The notes under the pieces are model-generated. The model searched no databases and had not been told where the DNA came from. It saw nothing but the letters and a program-made list of their open reading frames with translations. Below are positions 10,984 through 37,800 of a stretch of 64,000 nucleotides of DNA, piece after piece. Source of the stretch: a bacterium (lineage in GTDB: Bacteria > Hydrothermota > Tepidihabitantia > Tepidihabitantales > Tepidihabitantaceae); NCBI GenBank assembly GCA_039793395.1, contig JBAMLV010000018.1, positions 9,993 to 73,992 of the forward strand. The letters are read 5' to 3'. Both the position numbers and the translations under genes were made by a program. The first letter of the stretch is position 1. Every line of letters starts with the position of its first letter.

Positions 10984-12768
10984 ATGTGGTTTGGTGAGTT
11001 GATGCTGCCCGAGGATGAGGAACGGGCACCGGGCCGGGCGGTTGAATACCTGCGCCGGCTCTGGCCCTTCTTTGCCCCCTATCTTAACCGGATAATCGGT
11101 GCCGGGTTGCTGTTGCTCGTTTCCAGCGGACTGATGCTTTTGGGTCCGGTATTGCTCAAGCGGGCGATTGATGTCAATATTGCCCGGGGCGATGTTCCGG
11201 GGCTGGCGTTAACCTCGTTGATTTATCTGACAATTCAGGTGCTCACCTTTTTTGCCACCTATTTTCAACTGGTGTGGCTGGCGCAGGTGGGCGAGCGCGG
11301 GGCAGCAGATTTGAAAAGGCGGTTGTTTGAGCACATCCTGAAACTGCCGATGTCCTTTTTTGACCAGAATCCGAGCGGCAAACTGCTCTCCCGGGTGGAG
11401 AGTGATACCGAGGCTTTGAAGATGCTTTTTGCCCGGACTTCGGTGGTGCTGGTGCAGAGCGGGCTGATGCTGGTCGGAATGAGCGTGGTGATGGTGATTA
11501 CCAGCTGGCAACTGTATCTTTTGGTGGCGGTGCTTTTGCCACCGTTTGTGGTTGCCTTTTACTATTTTCAGAAGAAGGTCCGGCCGGTGTATCTGCGGGT
11601 CAGGCGCACGGTTGCTGACATCAACAATCTGGTGGTGGAGGCGCTGCGGGGTCTGCCGGTGATTCAGGCTTTCTGTCAGCAGGCGGGGTTCAGCCGGCGG
11701 ATGGATGAGTTTAACCGGCAGAAGTATCGGGCAGAACTGAAGGCGTCCTATCTCTGGTATGCGGTCTGGTTGCTGATGGATTTCGGGGAGATTGTCGGGA
11801 TTGCGCTGGTGCTGAGTGTTGGCGGGTTATGGGCGCTTAAGGGAACGCTGACCATCGGCACGCTGGTGCTGTTTGTTTCCTATATCAGCCGGCTGTTCTA
11901 TCCGCTGCGCTCAATTTCGGACCAGATTAACATTATGCAGCGGGCATTTGCCTCGGCGGAGCGGACCCTGAATATTTTGGACCAGGAGCCAGAGCCCACG
12001 GGCAGGGTGAGGTCCGGGATTGAACTGAAGCACAAAATTGAGTTTGCCCGGGTGGGGTTTGGCTACAATCCGCAGGAGCCGGTGCTCAAGGATATCAATC
12101 TGATTATCAGCCCCGGGGAAAAGGTGGCGTTGGTGGGTGAGACCGGCGGGGGCAAGACCTCAATTGTCAACCTGCTTTTAAAGTTCTATCAGCCGCAGTC
12201 CGGAAGGATTACCATTGATGGGCTGGACCTGCAGGAGATTGATAATCAGGTGCTCAGGCGGATGGTCGGGTTTGTGCCGCAGGAGGTGGTGGTGTTTCCG
12301 GGCACGGTGCTGGACAACCTGCGGCTGTTTGACCCGGCGATTTCACCCGCGCAGGTGCGGGCGGCAGCGCAGCGGGTGAAGATCAACCGGGCAATTGAGC
12401 GGTTTGAAAATGGTTATGACACGGTGCTCACCGAGGGTGGTGCCAACTTTTCACTGGGGGAACGCCAGCTTTTGGCATTTGCCCGGGCACTGGTGCGCGA
12501 CCCCCAGCTTTTGATTCTGGACGAGGCAACATCGGCGGTTGACCCGCAGACCGAGGGGCTGATTCAGGAGGGGCTGAAGGAGCTTTTGCAGGGCAGAACC
12601 GCCATCATCATCGCCCATCGGCTCGCCACCATTCAGATGGTTGACCGGGTAGTGGTGGTGCACCGGGGCAGGATTGCCGAGACCGGGACCCATGCCGAAC
12701 TACTGATGCGGAACGGGATTTATGCCCGGCTTTACCGCCTGCAGTTTGTTGATGGAGGGGCGGAATGA
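10984..12768 (+). CDS. ABC exporter, fused permease/ATPase (half of a heterodimer)
   Basis: Six-TM exporter domain, then Walker A GETGGGKTS, signature FSLGERQ and Walker B LLILDEATSAVD. Confidence 0.9.
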   Translation: MWFGELMLPEDEERAPGRAVEYLRRLWPFFAPYLNRIIGAGLLLLVSSGLMLLGPVLLKRAIDVNIARGDVPGLALTSLIYLTIQVLTFFATYFQLVWLAQVGERGAADLKRRLFEHILKLPMSFFDQNPSGKLLSRVESDTEALKMLFARTSVVLVQSGLMLVGMSVVMVITSWQLYLLVAVLLPPFVVAFYYFQKKVRPVYLRVRRTVADINNLVVEALRGLPVIQAFCQQAGFSRRMDEFNRQKYRAELKASYLWYAVWLLMDFGEIVGIALVLSVGGLWALKGTLTIGTLVLFVSYISRLFYPLRSISDQINIMQRAFASAERTLNILDQEPEPTGRVRSGIELKHKIEFARVGFGYNPQEPVLKDINLIISPGEKVALVGETGGGKTSIVNLLLKFYQPQSGRITIDGLDLQEIDNQVLRRMVGFVPQEVVVFPGTVLDNLRLFDPAISPAQVRAAAQRVKINRAIERFENGYDTVLTEGGANFSLGERQLLAFARALVRDPQLLILDEATSAVDPQTEGLIQEGLKELLQGRTAIIIAHRLATIQMVDRVVVVHRGRIAETGTHAELLMRNGIYARLYRLQFVDGGAE

Positions 12769-14507
12769 AGTTCAGAATCGCGCCGGGACTGAAACTGGTA
12801 GGGGATTTCTGGCAGCGGCACCGGCTGCTGGCGCTCAGTCTGTTCTTGCTGACCGTGCTCAGCGGCGGGCTGGCGATTGCCTTTCCCTATCTTTTGCGCC
12901 TGATTGTTGATGGTATTAAAACCGAAATCACCGGTCCGAAACTGGTGCGTTATGTTTTGCTCTTAGCCGGTTTCGGCACCCTGCGGGCAATGATGGATGT
13001 GATTCTGCCCTTCATCCGCGGCCGGACCAATGAGCAGTTTCAGTGGGAGGTGCGTAGCGGTGTGTTCCGGCGGATGCTGGAGGCGGGCTATGCATTTACC
13101 AGCCGGTTTCCAAGCGGTGATGTGATGGAGCGGCTGGACCACGACCTGCAGGAACTGTCCTGGTTTGCCTGTTCCGGGATTTTCCGGTTTGTCTATGCCG
13201 GGCTGGTGGTGCTGTTTACACTGGTAATGCTTTTGAAGATGAATCTCCTGCTGACGCTGGTGGTGCTGGTGCCGGTCAGTCTGGTGGTTTTCGGCTGGCT
13301 CCGTGCTGGACCGCTGATTTACCAGTGGTTTATGAAATGGCGGGAGCAGATTGCCGAAACCAACAATCAGCTCCAGGCGGCGTTTGCCGGTATCCGGCTG
13401 GTCAAGGGGTTTGTGATGGAGAACCGGCTGGCAGCGCGCTTCGGGACGACGCTGGACGAGCGGGTTCGGGTGGTGGTCCAGGAGACAAAAGTTGAAGCCA
13501 GGATTCAGGTTTTTTATATGATGATTGCCGAACTTGCCACTCTTTTGATTCTCTGGGTCGGTGGGCTCCTGGTAATCAGAAAGGGTCTAACCCTGGGCGA
13601 GTTTGTGGCGTTCAACGTCTATCTGCTGATGCTTTTGCCGATGATGTTTGATATCGGCAACCTGTTTGTTGCCGGCAGGAGAGCCGGAGGTGCGGGGGAA
13701 CGGATTCAGGCGCTGATAACTGCGGAACCGGAGCAGAAAAGGGCGGTTTTGGCCCGCAGACCGTTTGCCGGTGATTTATACCTTGAGCGGGTCAGTTCTG
13801 GCTACAGCGCAACGCCGGTGCTGAAGGACATTTCAATGGTGATAAAGCGGGGCAGACGGACCGGAATTGCCGGCACAGTCGGTTCAGGCAAGAGCACGGT
13901 GCTGCGCCTGATTTTGCGGCTGATTGAGCCGCAGACGGGCAGGATACTGCTCAACCAGGAACCGGTCACCGAATTTGAGCTAACGGCTTACCGCCAGTTG
14001 TTCGGCTATGCACCTCAGGAGCCAACGCTCTTTTCAATGACCCTGCGTGAGAACATCACTTTTGGCAGACAGGTAAGTGAGGAGCAGTTGCGTCAGGTGG
14101 TGCGGCTTGCCCGGCTGGAGCAGGATATTGCCGGTTTGAAGAACGGTCTGGAGGAAATGCTGGGTGAACGGGGCATTGGACTTTCCGGAGGGCAGAAGGC
14201 GCGGGTGGCGATTGCCCGGGCAATTCTAAAACTGCCGCAGTATATCATACTTGATGACGCCACTTCGGCGCTGGATGCGGACACCGAACAGGAGTTTTTT
14301 GACCAGTTGTTTACCGAACTTTCGGACCGGACCTTCATCATCGTCTCCCATCGGCTCAAGGTGCTTTCAGCCTGTGATTATATCTATGTTTTGGACCGGG
14401 GCGAGCTGGTGGAGGAGGGCACGCCCGCAGAACTGATGGCAAAGCGCGGGCTTTACTACCGGCTTTACCAGCGTCAGTTGCTTAAAGAAGAACTGGAACG
14501 GCTTTAA
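12765..14507 (+). CDS. ABC exporter, fused permease/ATPase (second half of the heterodimer)
   Basis: ATGA overlap with the upstream gene. Walker A GTVGSGKST, signature LSGGQKAR and Walker B YIILDDATSALD. Confidence 0.9.
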   Translation: MKFRIAPGLKLVGDFWQRHRLLALSLFLLTVLSGGLAIAFPYLLRLIVDGIKTEITGPKLVRYVLLLAGFGTLRAMMDVILPFIRGRTNEQFQWEVRSGVFRRMLEAGYAFTSRFPSGDVMERLDHDLQELSWFACSGIFRFVYAGLVVLFTLVMLLKMNLLLTLVVLVPVSLVVFGWLRAGPLIYQWFMKWREQIAETNNQLQAAFAGIRLVKGFVMENRLAARFGTTLDERVRVVVQETKVEARIQVFYMMIAELATLLILWVGGLLVIRKGLTLGEFVAFNVYLLMLLPMMFDIGNLFVAGRRAGGAGERIQALITAEPEQKRAVLARRPFAGDLYLERVSSGYSATPVLKDISMVIKRGRRTGIAGTVGSGKSTVLRLILRLIEPQTGRILLNQEPVTEFELTAYRQLFGYAPQEPTLFSMTLRENITFGRQVSEEQLRQVVRLARLEQDIAGLKNGLEEMLGERGIGLSGGQKARVAIARAILKLPQYIILDDATSALDADTEQEFFDQLFTELSDRTFIIVSHRLKVLSACDYIYVLDRGELVEEGTPAELMAKRGLYYRLYQRQLLKEELERL

Positions 14508-14526
14508 GCCGGTGCCATCCCGGTTT

Positions 14527-14750
14527 TTCTGTCATTGCGAGCGGAGCGAAGCAAACCCGATGCGGCAGGGATTGCCACCTGCCTTCGGCAGAGCGCAATG
14601 ACTCACTACTTTCTGTCATTCCGAGCCCGAAGGGCGAAGGAATCTCAATTAGATTCCTCACTTCGTTCGGCATGCCCCTTCGGGTCAGATTGCTTCGGCA
14701 CTGCGTGCCTCGCAATGACGGATAAAAAAGGTGGCGCCGGAATGACAAAA
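14527..14750. repeat. Cluster of six REP/MITE-like palindromic units of the GTCATT[G/C]CGAG family
   Basis: Forward units are at 14527-14557 and 14611-14645. Reverse units are at 14570-14602, 14651-14670 (partial), 14688-14719 and 14737-14750 (partial). Each contains an internal hairpin. Confidence 0.75.
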
Positions 14751-14804
14751 TAAAAAGGTTGCGCCGGGGGAGGATAATTAGTTGTGGTGATGGGGGAACG
14801 CCAC

Positions 14805-14832
14805 TTGACCCGGTTAATCAGCACCGTATAAT
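14805..14832 (+). promoter_or_regulatory. Candidate sigma70-type promoter of trpS
   Basis: TTGACC (14805-14810), a 16-nt spacer, then TATAAT (14827-14832). The -10 ends 7 nt before ATG 14840. Confidence 0.5.
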
Positions 14833-14839
14833 CGCTTTA

Positions 14840-15844
14840 ATGGAAAAGAAGCGAATTTTAACCGGGGACCGGCCGACCGGTCCGCTGCATCTGGGACATT
14901 ATGTCGGTTCGGTTGCCAACCGGGTTAAACTGCAAAATGATTACGACACTTTTATCATTATTGCCGATATTCAGGCACTGACCACCAATTTTGACCGGCC
15001 AGAAAGGCTGCGCCAGGATGTGCTGAATGTGGCAATGGACAACATCGCCTGCGGTGTTGACCCGGCCAAGGCAACCATTTTTGTTCAGTCAATGGTGCCG
15101 GCGATTGCGGAACTGACGGTGATTTATGCCAATCTGGTAACGGTGCAGCAGCTTTTGCACAATCCGACCATCAAGACCGAAGCCCGGCAGTACAATTTTG
15201 AGGAGTCAATGCCCTATGGGTTTCTCGGTTATCCGGTGAGTCAGGCAGCTGATATTACCTTCTGTCGGGCGCATCTGGTGCCGGTGGGTGAGGACCAGGC
15301 ACCACACATTGAACTGACCCGGAAAATAGTGCGGAAGTTTAATGCGATTTATGCCCCGGTGCTGGTTGAGCCGGAACAGTTGCTCAATCCCCGGCTGGTC
15401 GGGCTGGATGGAAATACCAAGATGTCCAAGAGTCTGGGGAATGCAATTTATCTATCGGACCCACCGGCGGAAGTCAAGCGGAAGGTGAGCACGGCGGTTA
15501 CCGACCCGGCACGGATTCATCCGAGCGATCAGGGACATCCAGAGGTGTGTGTGGTGTTTGCCTATCACCAGCACTTTAACACCAGTGAGGTGAAGGATAT
15601 TGAGGAGCGGTGCCGTGCCGGAACAATCGGCTGTGTGCCGTGTAAGGGTCGGCTGAGTGAGGCGCTTAACCGGTTTCTGGAGCCAATCCGGGAGCGGCGG
15701 GCAGAGCTGGAGCAGGACCCGGACCGGGTGTGGGACATTCTGAAAGCCGGGACCGCGCGCGCCCGTGCCGAAGGGGAAAAGACGATGGCACTGGTGCGGA
15801 CAGCAATGAAGATTGACTATTTTCCGATTCCCCGCACGGACTAA
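14840..15844 (+). CDS. trpS: Tryptophan--tRNA ligase
   Basis: Has MEKKRILTGDRPTGPLHLGHYVGS (HIGH-type motif) and KMSKSLGN. Start moved from the ORF-track TTG to the ATG that gives a canonical N-terminus. Confidence 0.92.
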   Translation: MEKKRILTGDRPTGPLHLGHYVGSVANRVKLQNDYDTFIIIADIQALTTNFDRPERLRQDVLNVAMDNIACGVDPAKATIFVQSMVPAIAELTVIYANLVTVQQLLHNPTIKTEARQYNFEESMPYGFLGYPVSQAADITFCRAHLVPVGEDQAPHIELTRKIVRKFNAIYAPVLVEPEQLLNPRLVGLDGNTKMSKSLGNAIYLSDPPAEVKRKVSTAVTDPARIHPSDQGHPEVCVVFAYHQHFNTSEVKDIEERCRAGTIGCVPCKGRLSEALNRFLEPIRERRAELEQDPDRVWDILKAGTARARAEGEKTMALVRTAMKIDYFPIPRTD

Positions 15845-15859
15845 AGGGACGGGTTTTCA

Positions 15860-16537
15860 GTGCCAACTGCCGGACAAGCCAATTTCGGGGTTATTGTTGC
15901 TGCGGGCAGGGGGCGCAGGTTTGGCGGTTTGAAGCAGTTTGCCCGGGTAAAAAATAAGCCGCTGCTGTTTTATAGTCTGCGGGCATTTGAACGGTGTCCG
16001 GTGATGAAGGGATATGTGGTGGTTGCCAATCCGGGTAAAATTTGTGCGGTCAGACGGATGGGGCGCATCTTTCGGCTGAAGAAGTTGCGGGCAGTGGTCA
16101 AAGGGGGAAGGGAGCGGATGGATTCGGTTGCTGCCGGACTGGCAGCGCTGCCCGAGGAGGGGTATGTGGCGGTGCACGATGCTGCCCGGCCATTGATTGT
16201 GCCGGCGATGCTTGCCCGTGGTTTCCGGATTGTCCGGCAGAGTGGGGCGGTAGCATTTGGCGCCCGGGTGACCGAGACGGTGAAGGAGGTTGTCGGTCGC
16301 CGGATCGTGCGCACCGTGGACCGGGAGGGACTGGTGACCATCCAGACGCCCCAGTTTTTTGATTTAAGGCTGCTCCGTCGGGCTTATGCCCGGTGCCGGA
16401 ATCAAGGGGTGCTGGTGACCGATGAATGTCAGGCGGTGGAGTTGTGGGGAGTTGAGCCGGTGGTGATTGTCCATGAGCGGCTGAATCTGAAGGTGACCTA
16501 TCCTGAGGACCTGCTGGTTTGTGAGGCGCTTTTATGA
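15860..16537 (+). CDS. ispD: 2-C-methyl-D-erythritol 4-phosphate cytidylyltransferase
   Basis: Has VIVAAGRGRRFGG..KQF...KPLL and VAVHDAARPL...VTETVKEV motifs. GTG start. Confidence 0.88.
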   Translation: MPTAGQANFGVIVAAGRGRRFGGLKQFARVKNKPLLFYSLRAFERCPVMKGYVVVANPGKICAVRRMGRIFRLKKLRAVVKGGRERMDSVAAGLAALPEEGYVAVHDAARPLIVPAMLARGFRIVRQSGAVAFGARVTETVKEVVGRRIVRTVDREGLVTIQTPQFFDLRLLRRAYARCRNQGVLVTDECQAVELWGVEPVVIVHERLNLKVTYPEDLLVCEALL

Positions 16538-35224: not shown

Positions 35225-37800
35225 CTTTCAATAAAGCAGGATGCCGGGTCAATCTGCCATTCCGGAGAGAAAAAACCGGCCGCCCGGATTCCGTGCCAGC
35301 CGAATTTCCTGACCGAGCGGTCAAAAACCATAAAGTCCGGGACTGAAGTCCCGGAACCAATGATTCCCCAGAAAAGCGACAGTCGGGTGGCGGCGGGGTC
35401 GGTGCCGAACCGGCAGAGCACCAGCCGTTGGGGATTCAAGGGGTTGGGATAAGTGACAATTGCTGCCAGGTGTTCACCGAGGTCTGTTTCATTGACAAAA
35501 ATCCTGCCCTGCCGGGTCCGCACCGGCAGGCGATTTATAATCCGTTCCGCAACTGCGTTCTGATCCGGACTGCCGAGCACAATCAGGTTACGCTCCATTG
35601 GCACCCCCCCGGTGTCCGGATAAACTTCAGCCGTGCCATTGCCAATAAGCCACCAGCGCAGACACTCCTGAGTTGCACTGTGACGCAGAAAGCCGGTCAG
35701 TTCCGGATCTTTTGTTCCGTAAACGACGGCAAAAGGAGAAAACATCACCTGCTTTGCCGGTCCGTAAGTTTCCGGTTTTTTACCAGGTTGGTTGTTTTTT
35801 CCCCGGGTGCCAGCATTCCAGCCGGTTCTATCCAGCTGGACGGTTACCGGTCTGGAGGTCTTAAACTTTCCCCTGATAACCCGGCCATCAATTTTCAGCT
35901 TCACCGTGGGGCTGTGAAGGTTCAGCCGGTCAAGGTTCAGGGTAAGCCGGGTGATATTGCTCGTATGGATGTCTATCAAAGAATCGGTAGCAAATGCTTC
36001 AATGGTGGCATCCCTGCCAACCGTTCGCACCCGGTTGATCGTCAGCCAGTAAGCACGGTTGGACTGGGCAAGGTCAGCGGTCCGGAACCTGATATGCATT
36101 GGGGCGTTTATTCGCCTTTTTTCTTTGAGAAATGATATTAACTCCTGGTCATCCACACACACCGTGCCATCAGGGTAATTCCACCAGTGCTTTACCTCTG
36201 GCACCTCCTTATAACGGTATTGATAGCCAAGCGCATTCAGCCACAGGGCAAAGGTTCGGCTGTGAATTGGCGGGACATTATCATCGTCTCCACCGTGCAG
36301 GATGAAGACCGGCAGATTGAGCGCATTATCAACCAGTGCGGGTACATTATCGGGCCGGGCTGCCATATCCCTGATGGCGAGTTTTGAGGGTTCACTGAAG
36401 ATGATAGTTCGCTGCAGGAAATTGGGAACATAAAGTGGAAATGAGGGCCAAGCGGCTGCGGGTGCGATTGCGGCAAAGCGATCGGGAGAGGTAAGACCGA
36501 TATACCAGGTGCCGTGTCCACCCATTGAATGGCCGGTGAGGTAAATTCGGTCGGTGTCAATCGGGAATGCAGCACACACTTGCTGGAGGACTTCAAAGGC
36601 ATCCAGTCTGCCCCAGTCCTGCCAGTCAAATCCGTAAGGTCGGCGATTGGTCGGACAGACGATGAATGCCCAGTCTTTTGGCTTGTAACATCCGGCTAAA
36701 TCACTCGCTTCCACGCCGGCGCCGTGTAGTGATAAAATCAGGGCGTAGGTGCGGTCTGGCTGGTAGTCCGCAGGATAGGTAATTGCGTAATACTGGGCGG
36801 AGGAGTCAATCGCGGATAGGAAGGTCCTTTTATGTGGCTGAGTTATCAGGCGGGAGCGCAATTCAATTGTGTCCGAATGTTGAAAATCACCGGTTCGGGC
36901 AGTAATTATCAGGTAATAACCAGCGGTGTCATAAGGAAGTGCCGGGAACTGGACCGGAATTGCGGGTTTTTTTACCCCGAGCGCGGGGATATTACTGATA
37001 GTGGTATCGGCAATTGGGATTGCTTCGTCGCTATCGCTCCTCGCAATGACAGAGAAAGAAGACTTGGTTTCGCTGCGCTCGTAATGACGGGGAAGGAGTG
37101 TCAGGTGGAGATGGACGTTGTTCAGGAGATTTTCCGTAGTATTTAATAGTGGAATTCCGAGCCAGCCGCGGGTTTCGGTTTCGGCGATGATGTCCGGAGC
37201 GGTAATATCACTGGTTACGCTGATGAGCGGAGCCGAAACCGGAATCAGTAAAAACCGTACCCGCTGGTCGGCATAACCGGATAGGCGGAGTATCACCCGG
37301 TTGATGCCAGAATCAATGAGCACCGGGGTCTGAAACCAGTTGTTGCCGTAGACATCACCGAGATAACTCAGGCCGTTGATGATAAAACTGCCAATTCGGG
37401 TAGCAATTGCGAGCGCCCGCGATTTTTTTGGGGAGTAAAATTCGGCACAGGCATAACCGACCGCTGCCAGTCCACTTATTCCGTAATATTTCTGAATTGT
37501 ATCCCAGCGGACATCAGGGTATTCGGCATTCAACCAGCCGGCAGAATCTATGCTGACCTGCCGCCAGCGGGCAAATCCGCCCTGAACTAATCCGGAGTTA
37601 AGAGAATCATCAGGTTTAGGTTTAAGTGTTGCCGGGTCTTCAACCGCTTCGGTAATTCCTTCCCGGGTTCCGACTGAAAATGGTCCGCAGACGAGCCACT
37701 GGCGGATGATAATTGTATCCGGAATTGAAGGCAGATTAGCGGCAAAGGTGATGACATAAGTGAATGGCAGGATTAAAAACAGCGGGATTTTTTTTGACAT
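35221..37800 (-). CDS. Large secreted alpha/beta-hydrolase (esterase/peptidase S9-like) protein
   Basis: Start moved to MSKKIPLFLILPFTYVITFAA (signal peptide). Catalytic region is LSLHGAGVEAS...IYLTGHSMGGHGTW (GxSxG)...ILHGGDDDNVP. It carries an in-frame repeat-derived segment; see the repeat feature at 37018-37088. Confidence 0.75.
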   Translation of the reverse strand: MSKKIPLFLILPFTYVITFAANLPSIPDTIIIRQWLVCGPFSVGTREGITEAVEDPATLKPKPDDSLNSGLVQGGFARWRQVSIDSAGWLNAEYPDVRWDTIQKYYGISGLAAVGYACAEFYSPKKSRALAIATRIGSFIINGLSYLGDVYGNNWFQTPVLIDSGINRVILRLSGYADQRVRFLLIPVSAPLISVTSDITAPDIIAETETRGWLGIPLLNTTENLLNNVHLHLTLLPRHYERSETKSSFSVIARSDSDEAIPIADTTISNIPALGVKKPAIPVQFPALPYDTAGYYLIITARTGDFQHSDTIELRSRLITQPHKRTFLSAIDSSAQYYAITYPADYQPDRTYALILSLHGAGVEASDLAGCYKPKDWAFIVCPTNRRPYGFDWQDWGRLDAFEVLQQVCAAFPIDTDRIYLTGHSMGGHGTWYIGLTSPDRFAAIAPAAAWPSFPLYVPNFLQRTIIFSEPSKLAIRDMAARPDNVPALVDNALNLPVFILHGGDDDNVPPIHSRTFALWLNALGYQYRYKEVPEVKHWWNYPDGTVCVDDQELISFLKEKRRINAPMHIRFRTADLAQSNRAYWLTINRVRTVGRDATIEAFATDSLIDIHTSNITRLTLNLDRLNLHSPTVKLKIDGRVIRGKFKTSRPVTVQLDRTGWNAGTRGKNNQPGKKPETYGPAKQVMFSPFAVVYGTKDPELTGFLRHSATQECLRWWLIGNGTAEVYPDTGGVPMERNLIVLGSPDQNAVAERIINRLPVRTRQGRIFVNETDLGEHLAAIVTYPNPLNPQRLVLCRFGTDPAATRLSLFWGIIGSGTSVPDFMVFDRSVRKFGWHGIRAAGFFSPEWQIDPASCFIER
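37018..37088 (-). repeat. Two tandem units of the GTCATT[G/C]CGAG repeat family embedded in frame in the hydrolase CDS
   Basis: The minus strand reads CGTCATTACGAGCGCAGCGAAACCAAG TCTTCTTTCTCTGTCATTGCGAGGAGCGATAGCGACGAAGCAATCCC. It translates in frame as RHYERSETKSSFSVIARSDSDEAIP and shares TTTCT(CT)GTCATTGCGAG with the units at 14527 and 14611. Confidence 0.65.

Follow-up and report, generated by a model that had tools for sequence, protein, structure and literature searches.

A cluster of palindromic repeats, very probably of the CGTC-tagged family, between ABC exporter genes and trpS

Organization of the spacer between the ABC exporter genes and trpS

The window analyzed here (the whole 64,000-nucleotide stretch of DNA) contains a tandem pair of ABC exporter genes followed by trpS. 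Both exporter proteins match the Pfam families ABC_membrane and ABC_tran, with the transmembrane and ATPase domains fused in each. Between the ABC stop codon (14505–14507) and the trpS ATG (14840) lies a spacer of 332 nt, and short repeat units occupy about 235 nt of it, starting 13 nt past the stop codon (Table 1). The interval 14520–14754 comprises three full units (U1, U3, and U5), one divergent full unit (U2), and two half-units (U4 and U6), which are present in both orientations (U1 and U3 forward; U2, U4, U5, and U6 reverse). The spacer belongs to contig C18 of this genome (G000 in the comparisons below), where the match to U1 spans C18:24513–24554.

Table 1. Coordinates of the genes, repeat units, and promoter at the locus, and of one further repeat copy in the window.
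Feature	Coordinates	Strand	Description
Tandem ABC exporter gene pair	10984–14507 (10984–12768 and 12765–14507)	+	Upstream neighbor of the cluster
U1	14520–14558 (core 14531–14556)	+	Pyrimidine leader GGTTTTTCT, GTC head, short-loop GTCATTGCGAGCGGAGCGAAGCAAAC, tail CC
U2	14570–14602	-	Divergent full unit GTCATTGCG-CTCTGCC-GAAG-GCAGGTG-GCAATC ("GTGGCAATC" subtype), tail-to-tail with U1
U3	14605–14650 (core 14615–14644)	+	Leader CTACTTTCT, followed by GTCATTCCGAGCCCGAAGGGCGAAGGAATC and tail TC
U4	14651–14684	-	3′ part of an ATTCC-type unit (CCCGAAGGG...CGAAGTGAGGAATCT), without its own 5′ arm
U5	14682–14729 (core 14688–14719)	-	Leader TTTTTTATCC, followed by GTCATTGCGAGGCACGCAGTGCCGAAGCAATC and tail TG; full unit, inner stem GGCAC/GTGCC
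U6	14737–14764 (core 14737–14754)	-	5′ half: leader TTTATTTT, followed by GTCATTCCGG
trpS promoter	14805–14832	+	TTGACC-16 nt-TATAAT; 11 of 12 consensus matches; downstream of the cluster
trpS	14840–15844	+	Tryptophanyl-tRNA synthetase, from its translation; downstream neighbor of the cluster; orthologs 86–88% identical in six congeners
Further family copy	37012–37060 (C18:47004–47052)	-	Covariance model R1, 66 bits; inside a long ORF

All six units listed in an earlier note on this DNA are present at the coordinates given there. The note described the spacer as made almost entirely of such units, which is accurate except for the last 85 nt before the trpS ATG; these are free of repeats and form the promoter region. 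Its statement that every unit can fold on itself applies to U2, U3, and U5, which form DNA hairpins of −7.1, −5.7 (two-tier), and −7.4 kcal/mol, respectively. The lone fold of U1 is weak (−2.3 kcal/mol), and neither U4 nor U6 has a fold of its own. A covariance model (R1) was built from 19 seed units of the family. This model matches U1 (51.8 bits, E = 1.5e-10), U3 (55.0 bits, E = 2e-11), and U5 (57.5 bits, E = 4e-12), and leaves U2 unmatched at E ≤ 1.

Pairs of the U1/U2 type are repeated at C22:~100–175 and C8:48337–48431. The heads of U2 and U3 are 12 nt apart, and the 8-bp inverted repeat that the earlier note placed between the end of U3 (14638–14645) and U4 (14651–14658) is exact. On the minus strand, U6 precedes U5 by one period of 27 nt, and the U5/U6 region includes a direct repeat (14711–14737 and 14738–14764) with 78% identity. 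Based on head-to-head spacing, about 12 half-unit/full-unit tandems similar to U6/U5 were found in the genome. Spacing analysis also suggests that U4 and U6 may be the displaced 3′ half and the 5′ half, respectively, of one unit.

A lineage-specific junction upstream of trpS

A terminator for the ABC genes and the promoter of trpS had been expected to coexist inside the cluster. The promoter, however, is located between the cluster and trpS, and neither strand of 14300–15000 showed a hairpin with a T-run directly behind it. A T-rich tract is located 5′ of each hairpin, such that there is no canonical terminator in either direction of transcription. All seven genomes of the genus share the promoter sequence TTGAC(C/T)...GTATAATC and the distance between it and the ATG, but not the sequence further upstream. 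Because the −10 element ends 7 nt before the trpS ATG, the mRNA is probably leaderless.

In five of the six congeners (G001–G005), the ABC gene is directly followed by a convergent gene, with no repeats at this place. The distance between the ABC gene and trpS is approximately 21 kb in G001, G002, and G004, and the intervening 21-kb block of G001 was found on contig C25 of the present genome. The cluster marks a lineage-specific junction at the ABC/trpS locus. As this junction exists only in G000, a comparison of orthologous ABC-trpS spacers is impossible as such.

Consensus structure and genome-wide distribution of the repeats

A full unit consists of an unpaired (T/C)GTC head, an outer stem, an internal loop, an inner stem with its loop, and a YC tail, in this order. 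The outer stem has 5 bp (ATTSC/GSAAT) and the internal loop is GA/GAA, followed by a variable inner stem of 4–6 bp that closes a loop of 3–4 nt. Upstream of the head, a pyrimidine-rich leader of about 11 nt is specific to this lineage. The GTC head is invariant in all 19 seed units, and the A-T opening of the stem (ATT.../...AAT) is paired in 15–19 of them. The stems are supported by the pairing of 86% of the cells in the seed units, compared with 16–47% when the 3′ partners are slid by one to three columns. Further support comes from a compensatory exchange of G-C for C-G in the outer stem (ATTGC/GCAAT vs. ATTCC/GGAAT) and from three pair types in the inner stem. The commonest variant, with a GAGGAGCGAAGCGAC interior, has no convincing fold with nearest-neighbor DNA parameters, and its inner stem requires tandem G.A pairs.

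The motif GTCATTSCGAG has 27 exact sites in the 1.275-Mb genome and is not unique to this locus. With R1, 31 copies were found at E < 0.001 (43 at E ≤ 1) in the 1.28-Mb, 79%-complete genome, and these 31 copies are spread over 11 contigs. Nineteen of them are located wholly outside ORFs of at least 90 aa, although such ORFs cover 92% of the genome. Pairs of units in opposite orientation occur at C18, C22, C8, C4, and C13. Among 40 relatives, the R1 copy number ranges from 0 to 93. The spacers upstream of acpS and downstream of the PPC gene, which were compared in place of the ABC-trpS spacer, have units in G000 and in none of the six congeners. The units are non-coding, dispersed, mostly intergenic, and polymorphic between congeneric species, which agrees with the REP-like, hairpin-forming family proposed from the sequence of the locus. 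The accompanying term "MITE-like" is not appropriate, given that each element is a single hairpin with asymmetric ends and lacks terminal inverted repeats, and that two clean presence/absence sites, compared with the six congeners, showed no target-site duplication. By inspection, ten small ORFs that adjoin repeat copies look like ordinary host genes (acpS-like, FabZ-like, and secreted proteins), and no nuclease or transposase gene was recognized among them.

Relationship to CGTC-tagged REPs and the NTS/SRM motifs

The spacer very probably represents a cluster of CGTC-tagged palindromic repeats, of one family with the dRS3/NTS repeats of Neisseria and the Ssn-related motifs. The earlier note knew of no formal description of this core. 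However, the superfamily of CGTC-tagged REPs was described in 2013 (Di Nocera, De Gregorio, Rocco, BMC Genomics 14:522; PMC3733652), and Ssn proteins, which are GIY-YIG nucleases of single-stranded DNA, have been tied to such repeats (Chenal et al., 2025, Nat Commun; PMC11893778). In the former study, the tag is the tetranucleotide CGTC, or TGTC/CCTC, at one end of the palindrome, and WOR-3 does not figure among the five phyla listed. The families CGTC-1 to CGTC-4 take in dRS3 (Neisseria), RPE-4/RPE-6 (Rickettsia), and CGTC-1 of Bradyrhizobium, the units of which allow loops of unusual length.

The CGTC REPs of PMC3733652 and the present units have the same unpaired CGTC/TGTC tag, A-T stem opening, and short unpaired tail. 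They also share the opposite-orientation pairs (often heterodimers), the lack of an associated transposase, and a mainly intergenic placement with occasional in-frame intragenic copies. The differences concern the stems, which have 8–9 bp with loops of 4–5 nt in the published families, whereas the present units have a stem interrupted by an internal loop and a longer interior, and the tail, for which the consensus is CCA in contrast to CC/TC here. Moreover, the tandem 5′ half-units with a period of about 27 nt found here have no mention in the available text for CGTC REPs. For the tag itself, 15 of the 31 copies in this genome have T immediately before GTC, and nine have C. In 172 copies from other phyla, the shares at this position are 63% C and 33% T, which corresponds to the CGTC/TGTC tag described by Di Nocera et al.

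U3 and the NTS consensus CGTCATTCCCGCGMAVGCGGGAATCYRG (PMC11893778) have GTCATTCC...GGAATC in common, such that the head, the outer stem, and the first tail base of Neisseria NTS/dRS3 are the same as those of U3. The SRM/NTS motifs are likewise directional, hairpin-forming, rare inside genes, and clustered (PMC11893778). However, they have one 8-bp stem with a 4-nt loop, whereas the units here are two-tier (5 bp, the GA/GAA internal loop, and 4–6 bp), carry the lineage-specific leader, and occur in an assembly without an ssn gene. The published SRM pattern, HGTCWYN(0-2)YYVSBRHN(0-5)WNVSBRGN(0-2)RNCYNB, matches the NTS consensus and none of the units in the spacer; it has only three matches in the whole genome, all unrelated. 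The two-tier variant is missed by this pattern, so counts of SRM-bearing genomes are underestimates.

The earlier note connected the core with spurious peptides in many metagenome annotations, and copies were found to be widespread in other phyla. The dominant 32/33-mer of this genome is letter-identical to copies in Bradyrhizobium yuanmingense, Roseiarcus, and Sphingomonadales. Such identical 32-mers shared with Alphaproteobacteria argue for either a strong constraint imposed by the partner enzyme or horizontal spread. An Rfam scan of 13500–16000 at E ≤ 10 found no family over the spacer, with weak chance matches elsewhere only, and literature searches with exact DNA and peptide strings returned only unrelated primer matches. 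The cluster is genuine, and within a known family of repeats it is an ordinary case.

Association with small GIY-YIG genes

In the published Ssn system, the repeats typically lie on both sides of a gene for a single-domain GIY-YIG protein of about 90–100 aa, which is assigned to CDD family cd10448 and cuts single-stranded DNA strand-specifically 5′ of the motif (PMC11893778). Single-domain GIY-YIG genes encoding 97–114 aa are flanked on both sides by R1-type repeats in the congeners G003 (locus L005, with the gene for the 97-aa homolog at 1489–1782) and G001 (L010) and in G015 and G016, which are members of the same taxonomic family; loci L006 and L009 are both-sided as well. In other phyla, the repeats are present on both sides of such a gene in Bradyrhizobium ganzhouense (L156), Pedobacter miscanthi (L161/L163), a Planctomycetota MAG (L097), and a Pseudomonadota MAG (L154); in Sphingomonas cynarae (L157), R1 matches are found on the downstream side only of the GIY-YIG homolog. 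Whole-genome searches of five named genomes were more informative than a survey of loci, in which a GIY-YIG gene was found within 8 kb at only two of 119 repeat-bearing loci from other phyla. With dispersed repeats and a gene present in a single copy, a low count is to be expected, and the survey is therefore a weak test of association. The 97-aa partner protein matches the Pfam GIY-YIG family with 60.4 bits over residues 5–75. For the GIY-YIG proteins of the relatives, the best PDB match is the UPF0213 protein 1zg2 (E = 1.6e-4), and there is no NCBIfam match.

No small GIY-YIG gene was found in the present assembly, either with the Pfam profile or by tblastn with the proteins of nine relatives (nothing below E = 0.04). 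The sole Pfam GIY-YIG match in this assembly is a 635-aa frame, which is probably UvrC. Thus, the repeat copies are orphans or the gene is unassembled. Short-read binning easily loses a gene of 300 bp that is enclosed by repeat clusters. The small gene was also not found in the copy-rich relatives G005 (93 copies, 99% complete), G006, G011, and G013. No ssn gene is seen in the genomes richest in copies (93, 47, and 31), and the two congeners that have the gene carry fewer copies of the variant. In the published survey, 19% of the repeat-rich genomes have no ssn gene (PMC11893778).

Alternative explanations

The cluster may have been kept for a role at the RNA level, in which it ends transcription or guards the 3′ end of the ABC mRNA and insulates trpS. 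Protection of 3′ ends from exonucleases has been proposed for the REPs of E. coli. The RNA of the spacer has a predicted fold of −119.4 kcal/mol (z = −3.6 relative to shuffles), the cluster begins immediately behind the ABC gene, and REPs are mostly found downstream of genes and may act as RNA (PMC3733652). However, a strong fold is expected from any set of inverted repeats, and the hairpins have their T-rich tracts on the 5′ side rather than a T-run behind them. In addition, the cluster is missing 3′ of the ABC gene in all six congeners and is therefore not a conserved regulatory part of the operon. Such a role is unlikely. Alternatively, the ABC-repeat-trpS junction could be an assembly chimera, with two true genomic regions, both ending in a repeat cluster, joined in this MAG through the shared repeats. 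Contigs here and in the relatives often start or end in repeat clusters (C22:48–175, C11:331, C13:525, and G005:C4:17–135), a nearly identical U1/U2 pair is found at the start of C22, and the separation of ABC and trpS by about 21 kb in three congeners is in line with a false join. Nevertheless, the gene that follows ABC in the relatives is found on C25, where the next 110 nt are unrelated, non-repeat sequence, and it does not simply abut a repeat cluster; the other end of the 21-kb block runs on into C25 without repeats. G003, G005, and G006 also differ in the region upstream of trpS, which indicates that rearrangement here is common in the genus. A chimeric junction is considered quite unlikely, and the units exist whatever the join.

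In their size, hairpin form, pairing, and intergenic bias, the units resemble REP/BIME elements, and a further reading would make them GTAG-type REPs or IS200/IS605-like ends moved by a RAYT/Y1 tyrosine transposase. The GTAG REP/BIME elements of E. coli and Pseudomonas, with their RAYT, are alike in outline, as a small nuclease-type enzyme recognizes a short, imperfect palindrome with an unpaired tag in single-stranded form, and the repeats bracket the gene for this enzyme. However, the tag in that system is GTAG rather than (T/C)GTC, and the enzyme is of the HUH/Y1 type, compared with GIY-YIG for the present family. Y1_Tnp (PF01797) has no match in this genome, whereas the same search matches six of 14 control genomes, and Di Nocera et al. 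found no CGTC REP that adjoins a tyrosine transposase gene (PMC3733652). Mobilization by RAYT/Y1, already contradicted by the head sequence and the absence of Y1_Tnp, is highly improbable. It is even harder to credit that the spacer encodes a real small protein. The ORFs at 14482–14748 (minus strand) and 14535–14753 (plus strand) provide open frames of 88 and 72 codons; however, they have no Pfam match and cross units in both orientations, which results in repeat-derived peptides (SLRGTQCRSNL, CFAPLAMTE, and CLAMTDK), and the whole spacer is missing from all six congeners. The suspicion that these ORFs are repeat artifacts is borne out.

Proposed mechanism and implications

If the cluster belongs to the CGTC-tagged family, as we consider very probable, the published enzymes of Neisseria, N. 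elongata, N. wadsworthii, and Wolbachia suggest that a partner nuclease would cut only the motif strand, at a position a few nucleotides to the 5′ side of the head. By analogy with the same enzymes, the family may spread or be maintained through interaction with the nuclease during replication, repair, or DNA uptake. The copies in this genome are most likely relics of past activity, or dependent on a gene that the assembly, which is 79% complete, has lost. A possible influence on expression at this locus, for example if the ABC transcript carried an extensive RNA structure at its 3′ end, would be secondary.

It is also conceivable, though we judge it rather doubtful, that the repeats of this genus multiply without an Ssn nuclease and that the tandem arrays of 5′ half-units are the footprint of copying. 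Each repeat in these arrays consists of the leader, GTCATTSCGAG, and about 4 nt, with a period of about 27 nt, and the arrays always end in one full hairpin. A possible route of copying would involve repeated cutting within the leader and subsequent template switching at the inner stem. If this were true, it would provide the first mechanistic clue to how CGTC REPs spread, which is a question left open in PMC3733652 and in PMC11893778.

For the locus itself, these findings indicate no special regulation of trpS, with the cluster as a passenger at a junction of rearrangement. More broadly, many metagenome annotations contain spurious small ORFs, and proteins falsely extended at the C- or N-terminus, that stem from this repeat. 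Finally, the finding extends the CGTC-REP/Ssn system to an uncultured lineage with small genomes.

Repeat Units in the Spacer Between the ABC Exporter Gene and trpS

The cluster between the ABC exporter gene and trpS is real and belongs to a known repeat family, the CGTC-tagged REPs, also known as Ssn-related motifs (SRMs). The earlier note located it correctly, and the sequence between the ABC stop codon and the trpS start codon matches its description, including the exact 8-bp inverted repeat formed by U4 and the end of U3 (repeat I15). Its statement that the family lacked a formal description was wrong, since two studies describe it. According to Di Nocera et al. (2013; PMC3733652), CGTC-tagged REPs carry a CGTC or TGTC tag, A-T pairs that open the stem, and short tails, and are found as opposite-orientation pairs, mostly in intergenic regions and without a transposase. 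The same study equates its CGTC-1 family with dRS3 of Neisseria. The Neisseria Transformation Sequence (NTS) is defined as CGTCATTCCCGCGMAVGCGGGAATCYRG and is bound as single-stranded DNA (ssDNA) by SsnA, a 94-aa single-domain GIY-YIG protein whose cleavage site lies upstream of the NTS and is confined to the motif strand, with dsDNA and RNA left uncut; SRMs typically bracket ssn genes (Chenal et al., 2025; PMC11893778). The NTS consensus and U3 have GTCATTCC...GGAATC in common. None of the units matched the published SRM pattern, and the variant found here has a two-tier hairpin that this search pattern overlooks.

Features of the ABC exporter-trpS spacer (window positions) and half-unit arrays elsewhere in the genome (contig positions)
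Feature	Location	Strand	Description
ABC exporter stop codon	14505-14507		TAA
U1	14531-14556	+	full unit
U2	14570-14602	-	full unit, divergent
U3	14615-14644	+	full unit; ATTCC/GGAAT type
U4	14651-14684	-	3' part only
U5	14688-14719	-	full unit
U6	14737-14754	-	5' part only
U6 then U5	14711-14764		half-unit array; direct repeat D1
trpS promoter	14805-14832		near-consensus; TTGACC-16-TATAAT
trpS start codon	14840		ATG
Half-unit array	C13:481-573		
Half-unit array	C8:48296-48378		
Half-unit array	C8:82473-82559		
Half-unit array	C22:32307-32371		
Half-unit array	C11:319-372		

As ssDNA, the two-tier hairpin forms in U2 (-7.1 kcal/mol), U3 (-5.7 kcal/mol), and U5 (-7.4 kcal/mol), whereas U1 folds weakly and U4 and U6 do not fold. 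The spacer RNA has a strong predicted fold (-119.4 kcal/mol, z -3.6), chiefly through pairing of U1 with U5; this is expected of inverted repeats and thus provides no evidence of function. The ORFs at 14482-14748 (-) and 14535-14753 (+), suspected earlier to be repeat artefacts, proved to be so, with readings such as SLRGTQCRSNL, CFAPLAMTE, and CLAMTDK. Neither these two ORFs nor the one at 14645-14824 (-) has a Pfam match.

This locus is only one of many that carry the motif. The genome (1,275,430 bases in 25 contigs, 79% complete; the window is C18:9993-73992) contains 27 exact matches to GTCATTSCGAG and 19 copies of the full form GTCATTSCGAG...GAAGSAA(T/A/C)C. With a covariance model of the family (R1), 31 copies reach E<0.001, and relaxing the cutoff to E<=1 raises the count to 43. 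Under an ORF call that was greedy on purpose (>=90 aa, longest possible start, 92% of the genome covered), 19 of the 31 copies are wholly between ORFs, and another reaches 6 nt into the end of an ORF. Of the others, six fall within ~200 nt of the beginning of start-extended frames, two within the final 50-80 nt of a frame, two in ORFs of <=107 aa, and one inside a long frame (window 37012-37060).

Structure and Phylogenetic Breadth of the Repeat

Based on the alignment of 19 full units behind R1, the unit starts with a GTC head, and the hairpin after it has two stems. The outer stem (ATTSC/GSAAT) spans 5 bp and the inner one 4-6 bp, closed by a loop of 3-4 nt; between the two stems, GA in the 5' arm and GAA in the 3' arm are unpaired. 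Standard pairs occupy 86% of the cells, compared with 16-47% when the 3' partners are shifted by 1-3 columns. Three sequences have the outer-stem G-C changed to C-G on both sides, which produces ATTCC/GGAAT units such as U3, and one inner-stem pair occurs as all four standard types (GC, CG, AU, and UA). The commonest interior, GGAGC-GAA-GCGAC, requires tandem G.A pairs and folds poorly under standard parameters. With all copies anchored on the head, a pyrimidine-rich leader of ~11 nt and a YC tail are evident, with no conservation beyond these.

A single scan of a species-representative genome collection with the pattern GTCATTGCGAGN{3,22}CGAAGCAATC identified at least 119 loci in many phyla, and the earlier note was right about a ubiquitous core. 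The matches listed include Alpha- and Gammaproteobacteria, Desulfobacterota, Chloroflexota, Bacteroidota, Cyanobacteria, Patescibacteria, Planctomycetota, Zixibacteria, Ignavibacteriota, Omnitrophota, Armatimonadota, Gemmatimonadota, Spirochaetes, Firmicutes, and Campylobacterota. The dominant 32/33-mer of the genome under study has identical copies in Bradyrhizobium yuanmingense, Roseiarcus, and Sphingomonadales. Outside the hairpin, conservation across phyla among the matches listed is limited to the base that precedes GTC (C or T) and a C-(A/C)-G tail; judging from these sequences, the long pyrimidine leader characterises the lineage studied here.

Association With Genes for Small GIY-YIG Proteins

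Among 40 relatives, R1 counts range from 0 to 93, and a gene for a 97-114-aa GIY-YIG protein (rough consensus QFYVYLMASKTGTLYLGVT..RRVYEHK..GFT.RYNV..LVWYE...AI.REKQIK.W.R.KK..LI...NP.W.DL) is present in two congeners (G001 and G003) and three other family members (G015, G016, and G024). R1-type repeats directly adjoin this gene on both sides in all of these except G024, which has two weak matches on one side only. A relative from the same order (G038; 24 copies) has a broken homolog (L019/L014; G038:C3:76450-77193), with three TAA stops inside the protein-search match and the Pfam domain split across two frames, and this gene is still flanked by R1 repeats (76450-76498 and 77145-77193). In other phyla, whole-genome searches of five named repeat-bearing genomes found homologs with 43-51% identity: one in Bradyrhizobium ganzhouense, four in Sphingomonas cynarae, six in Pedobacter miscanthi, and one, weak, in Sporomusa malonica, with none in Helicobacter rodentium. 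Repeats are found on both sides of the gene at loci from Bradyrhizobium (L156), Pedobacter (L161 and L163), a Planctomycetota MAG (L097), and a Pseudomonadota MAG (L154), and only downstream of it in Sphingomonas (L157).

The genome under study has no Y1 transposase, and its sole GIY-YIG match is within a 635-aa frame, presumably UvrC. A tblastn search with the small GIY-YIG proteins of relatives gave nothing below E 0.04, and the partner nuclease gene is absent from this assembly. This absence is weak evidence because contigs frequently break at repeat clusters, and binning can readily miss a gene of 300 bp that has a cluster on either side. A simple link to the nuclease is weakened by the mismatch to the SRM pattern and by four relatives, namely G005 (99% complete), G006, G013, and G011, which have the most copies of the variant after the genome under study, yet no gene was found in them. 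A third weak point is that membership of the relatives' small GIY-YIG proteins in CDD cd10448 is putative, with no NCBIfam match and a UPF0213 GIY-YIG protein (1zg2, E 1.6e-4) as their closest PDB entry.

A second kind of small GIY-YIG protein (MYYVYVLKS.KDNKLYTGYT..L.KR...HN.G.VKSTK.RRPFKL...) was observed in three order-level relatives (L002, L004, and L008 in G032, G025, and G026, respectively). R1 matches beside these genes are weak at two loci (E>0.02) and absent at the third.

Tandem Half-Units

In approximately 12 cases genome-wide, one or two truncated 5' copies, each consisting of the leader, GTCATTSCGAG, and ~4 nt, precede a full unit on the same strand. Their spacing ranges from 21 to 28 nt and peaks at 27, and a single full hairpin unit closes each array. 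Shuffled genomes have ~15 head pairs within 120 nt, evenly spread. No description of such arrays was found in Chenal et al. (PMC11893778) or Di Nocera et al. (PMC3733652). In the spacer, U5 could have split a single unit into U6 (ATTCC 5' arm) and U4 (GGAAT 3' arm, CCCGAAGGG inner hairpin). Nested insertion fails as a general explanation because the other arrays lack 3' halves.

Insertion Sites and the trpS Junction

A comparison across the genus covered two spacers whose flanking genes are conserved, one upstream of acpS and the other downstream of a PPC-domain gene. Both have units only in the genome under study (0/6 congeners), with no target-site duplication visible at either site. The species-specific acpS insertion (C8:60823-60884; L164) is directly upstream of the gene, and the complement of its pyrimidine leader places GAGGAAAAAG immediately 5' of the GTG start, an arrangement that resembles a ready-made ribosome-binding site. 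Elsewhere on C8, two units (77116-77140 and 82560-82584) share the ~70-nt sequence that comes after them (CCGAAAAAATAAGGGGGGCGTTGCCGCCCCCCTGAATTCGCACACGCAGCC...). At both sites it precedes the 3' ends of very large convergent genes (1478 and 1236 aa) and looks like a duplicated gene end including a terminator-like GC hairpin.

The -10 element of the trpS promoter ends 7 nt 5' of the ATG, and no Shine-Dalgarno sequence was found before trpS (window 14805-14842). Every one of the seven genomes of the genus keeps the arrangement TATAATC-NNNNNN-ATG, promoter and spacing alike, and the trpS mRNA is therefore probably leaderless. Everything upstream differs. No terminator-like hairpin with a T-run was found in window 14300-15000. 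Within the trpS coding region, a match to the Rfam Zeta-pan RNA (window 15736-15787; 26 bits, where the gathering score is 56.7; E 0.07) is most likely due to chance.

In G001-G005, a convergent gene follows the ABC gene after ~10-30 nt, without repeats, and in G001, G002, and G004 a gene block of ~21 kb separates the ABC gene from trpS. In the genome under study, this block is on another contig (C25:52396-71008), with non-repeat sequence past both ends. Given the different arrangement in congeners, the repeat cluster sits at a junction specific to this lineage. It is possible, though less likely, that the ABC-repeat-trpS junction is a chimeric join via shared repeats. The placement of the block on C25, together with the differing regions upstream of trpS in G003, G005, and G006, points to a possible breakpoint of recurrent rearrangement immediately upstream of the conserved trpS promoter.
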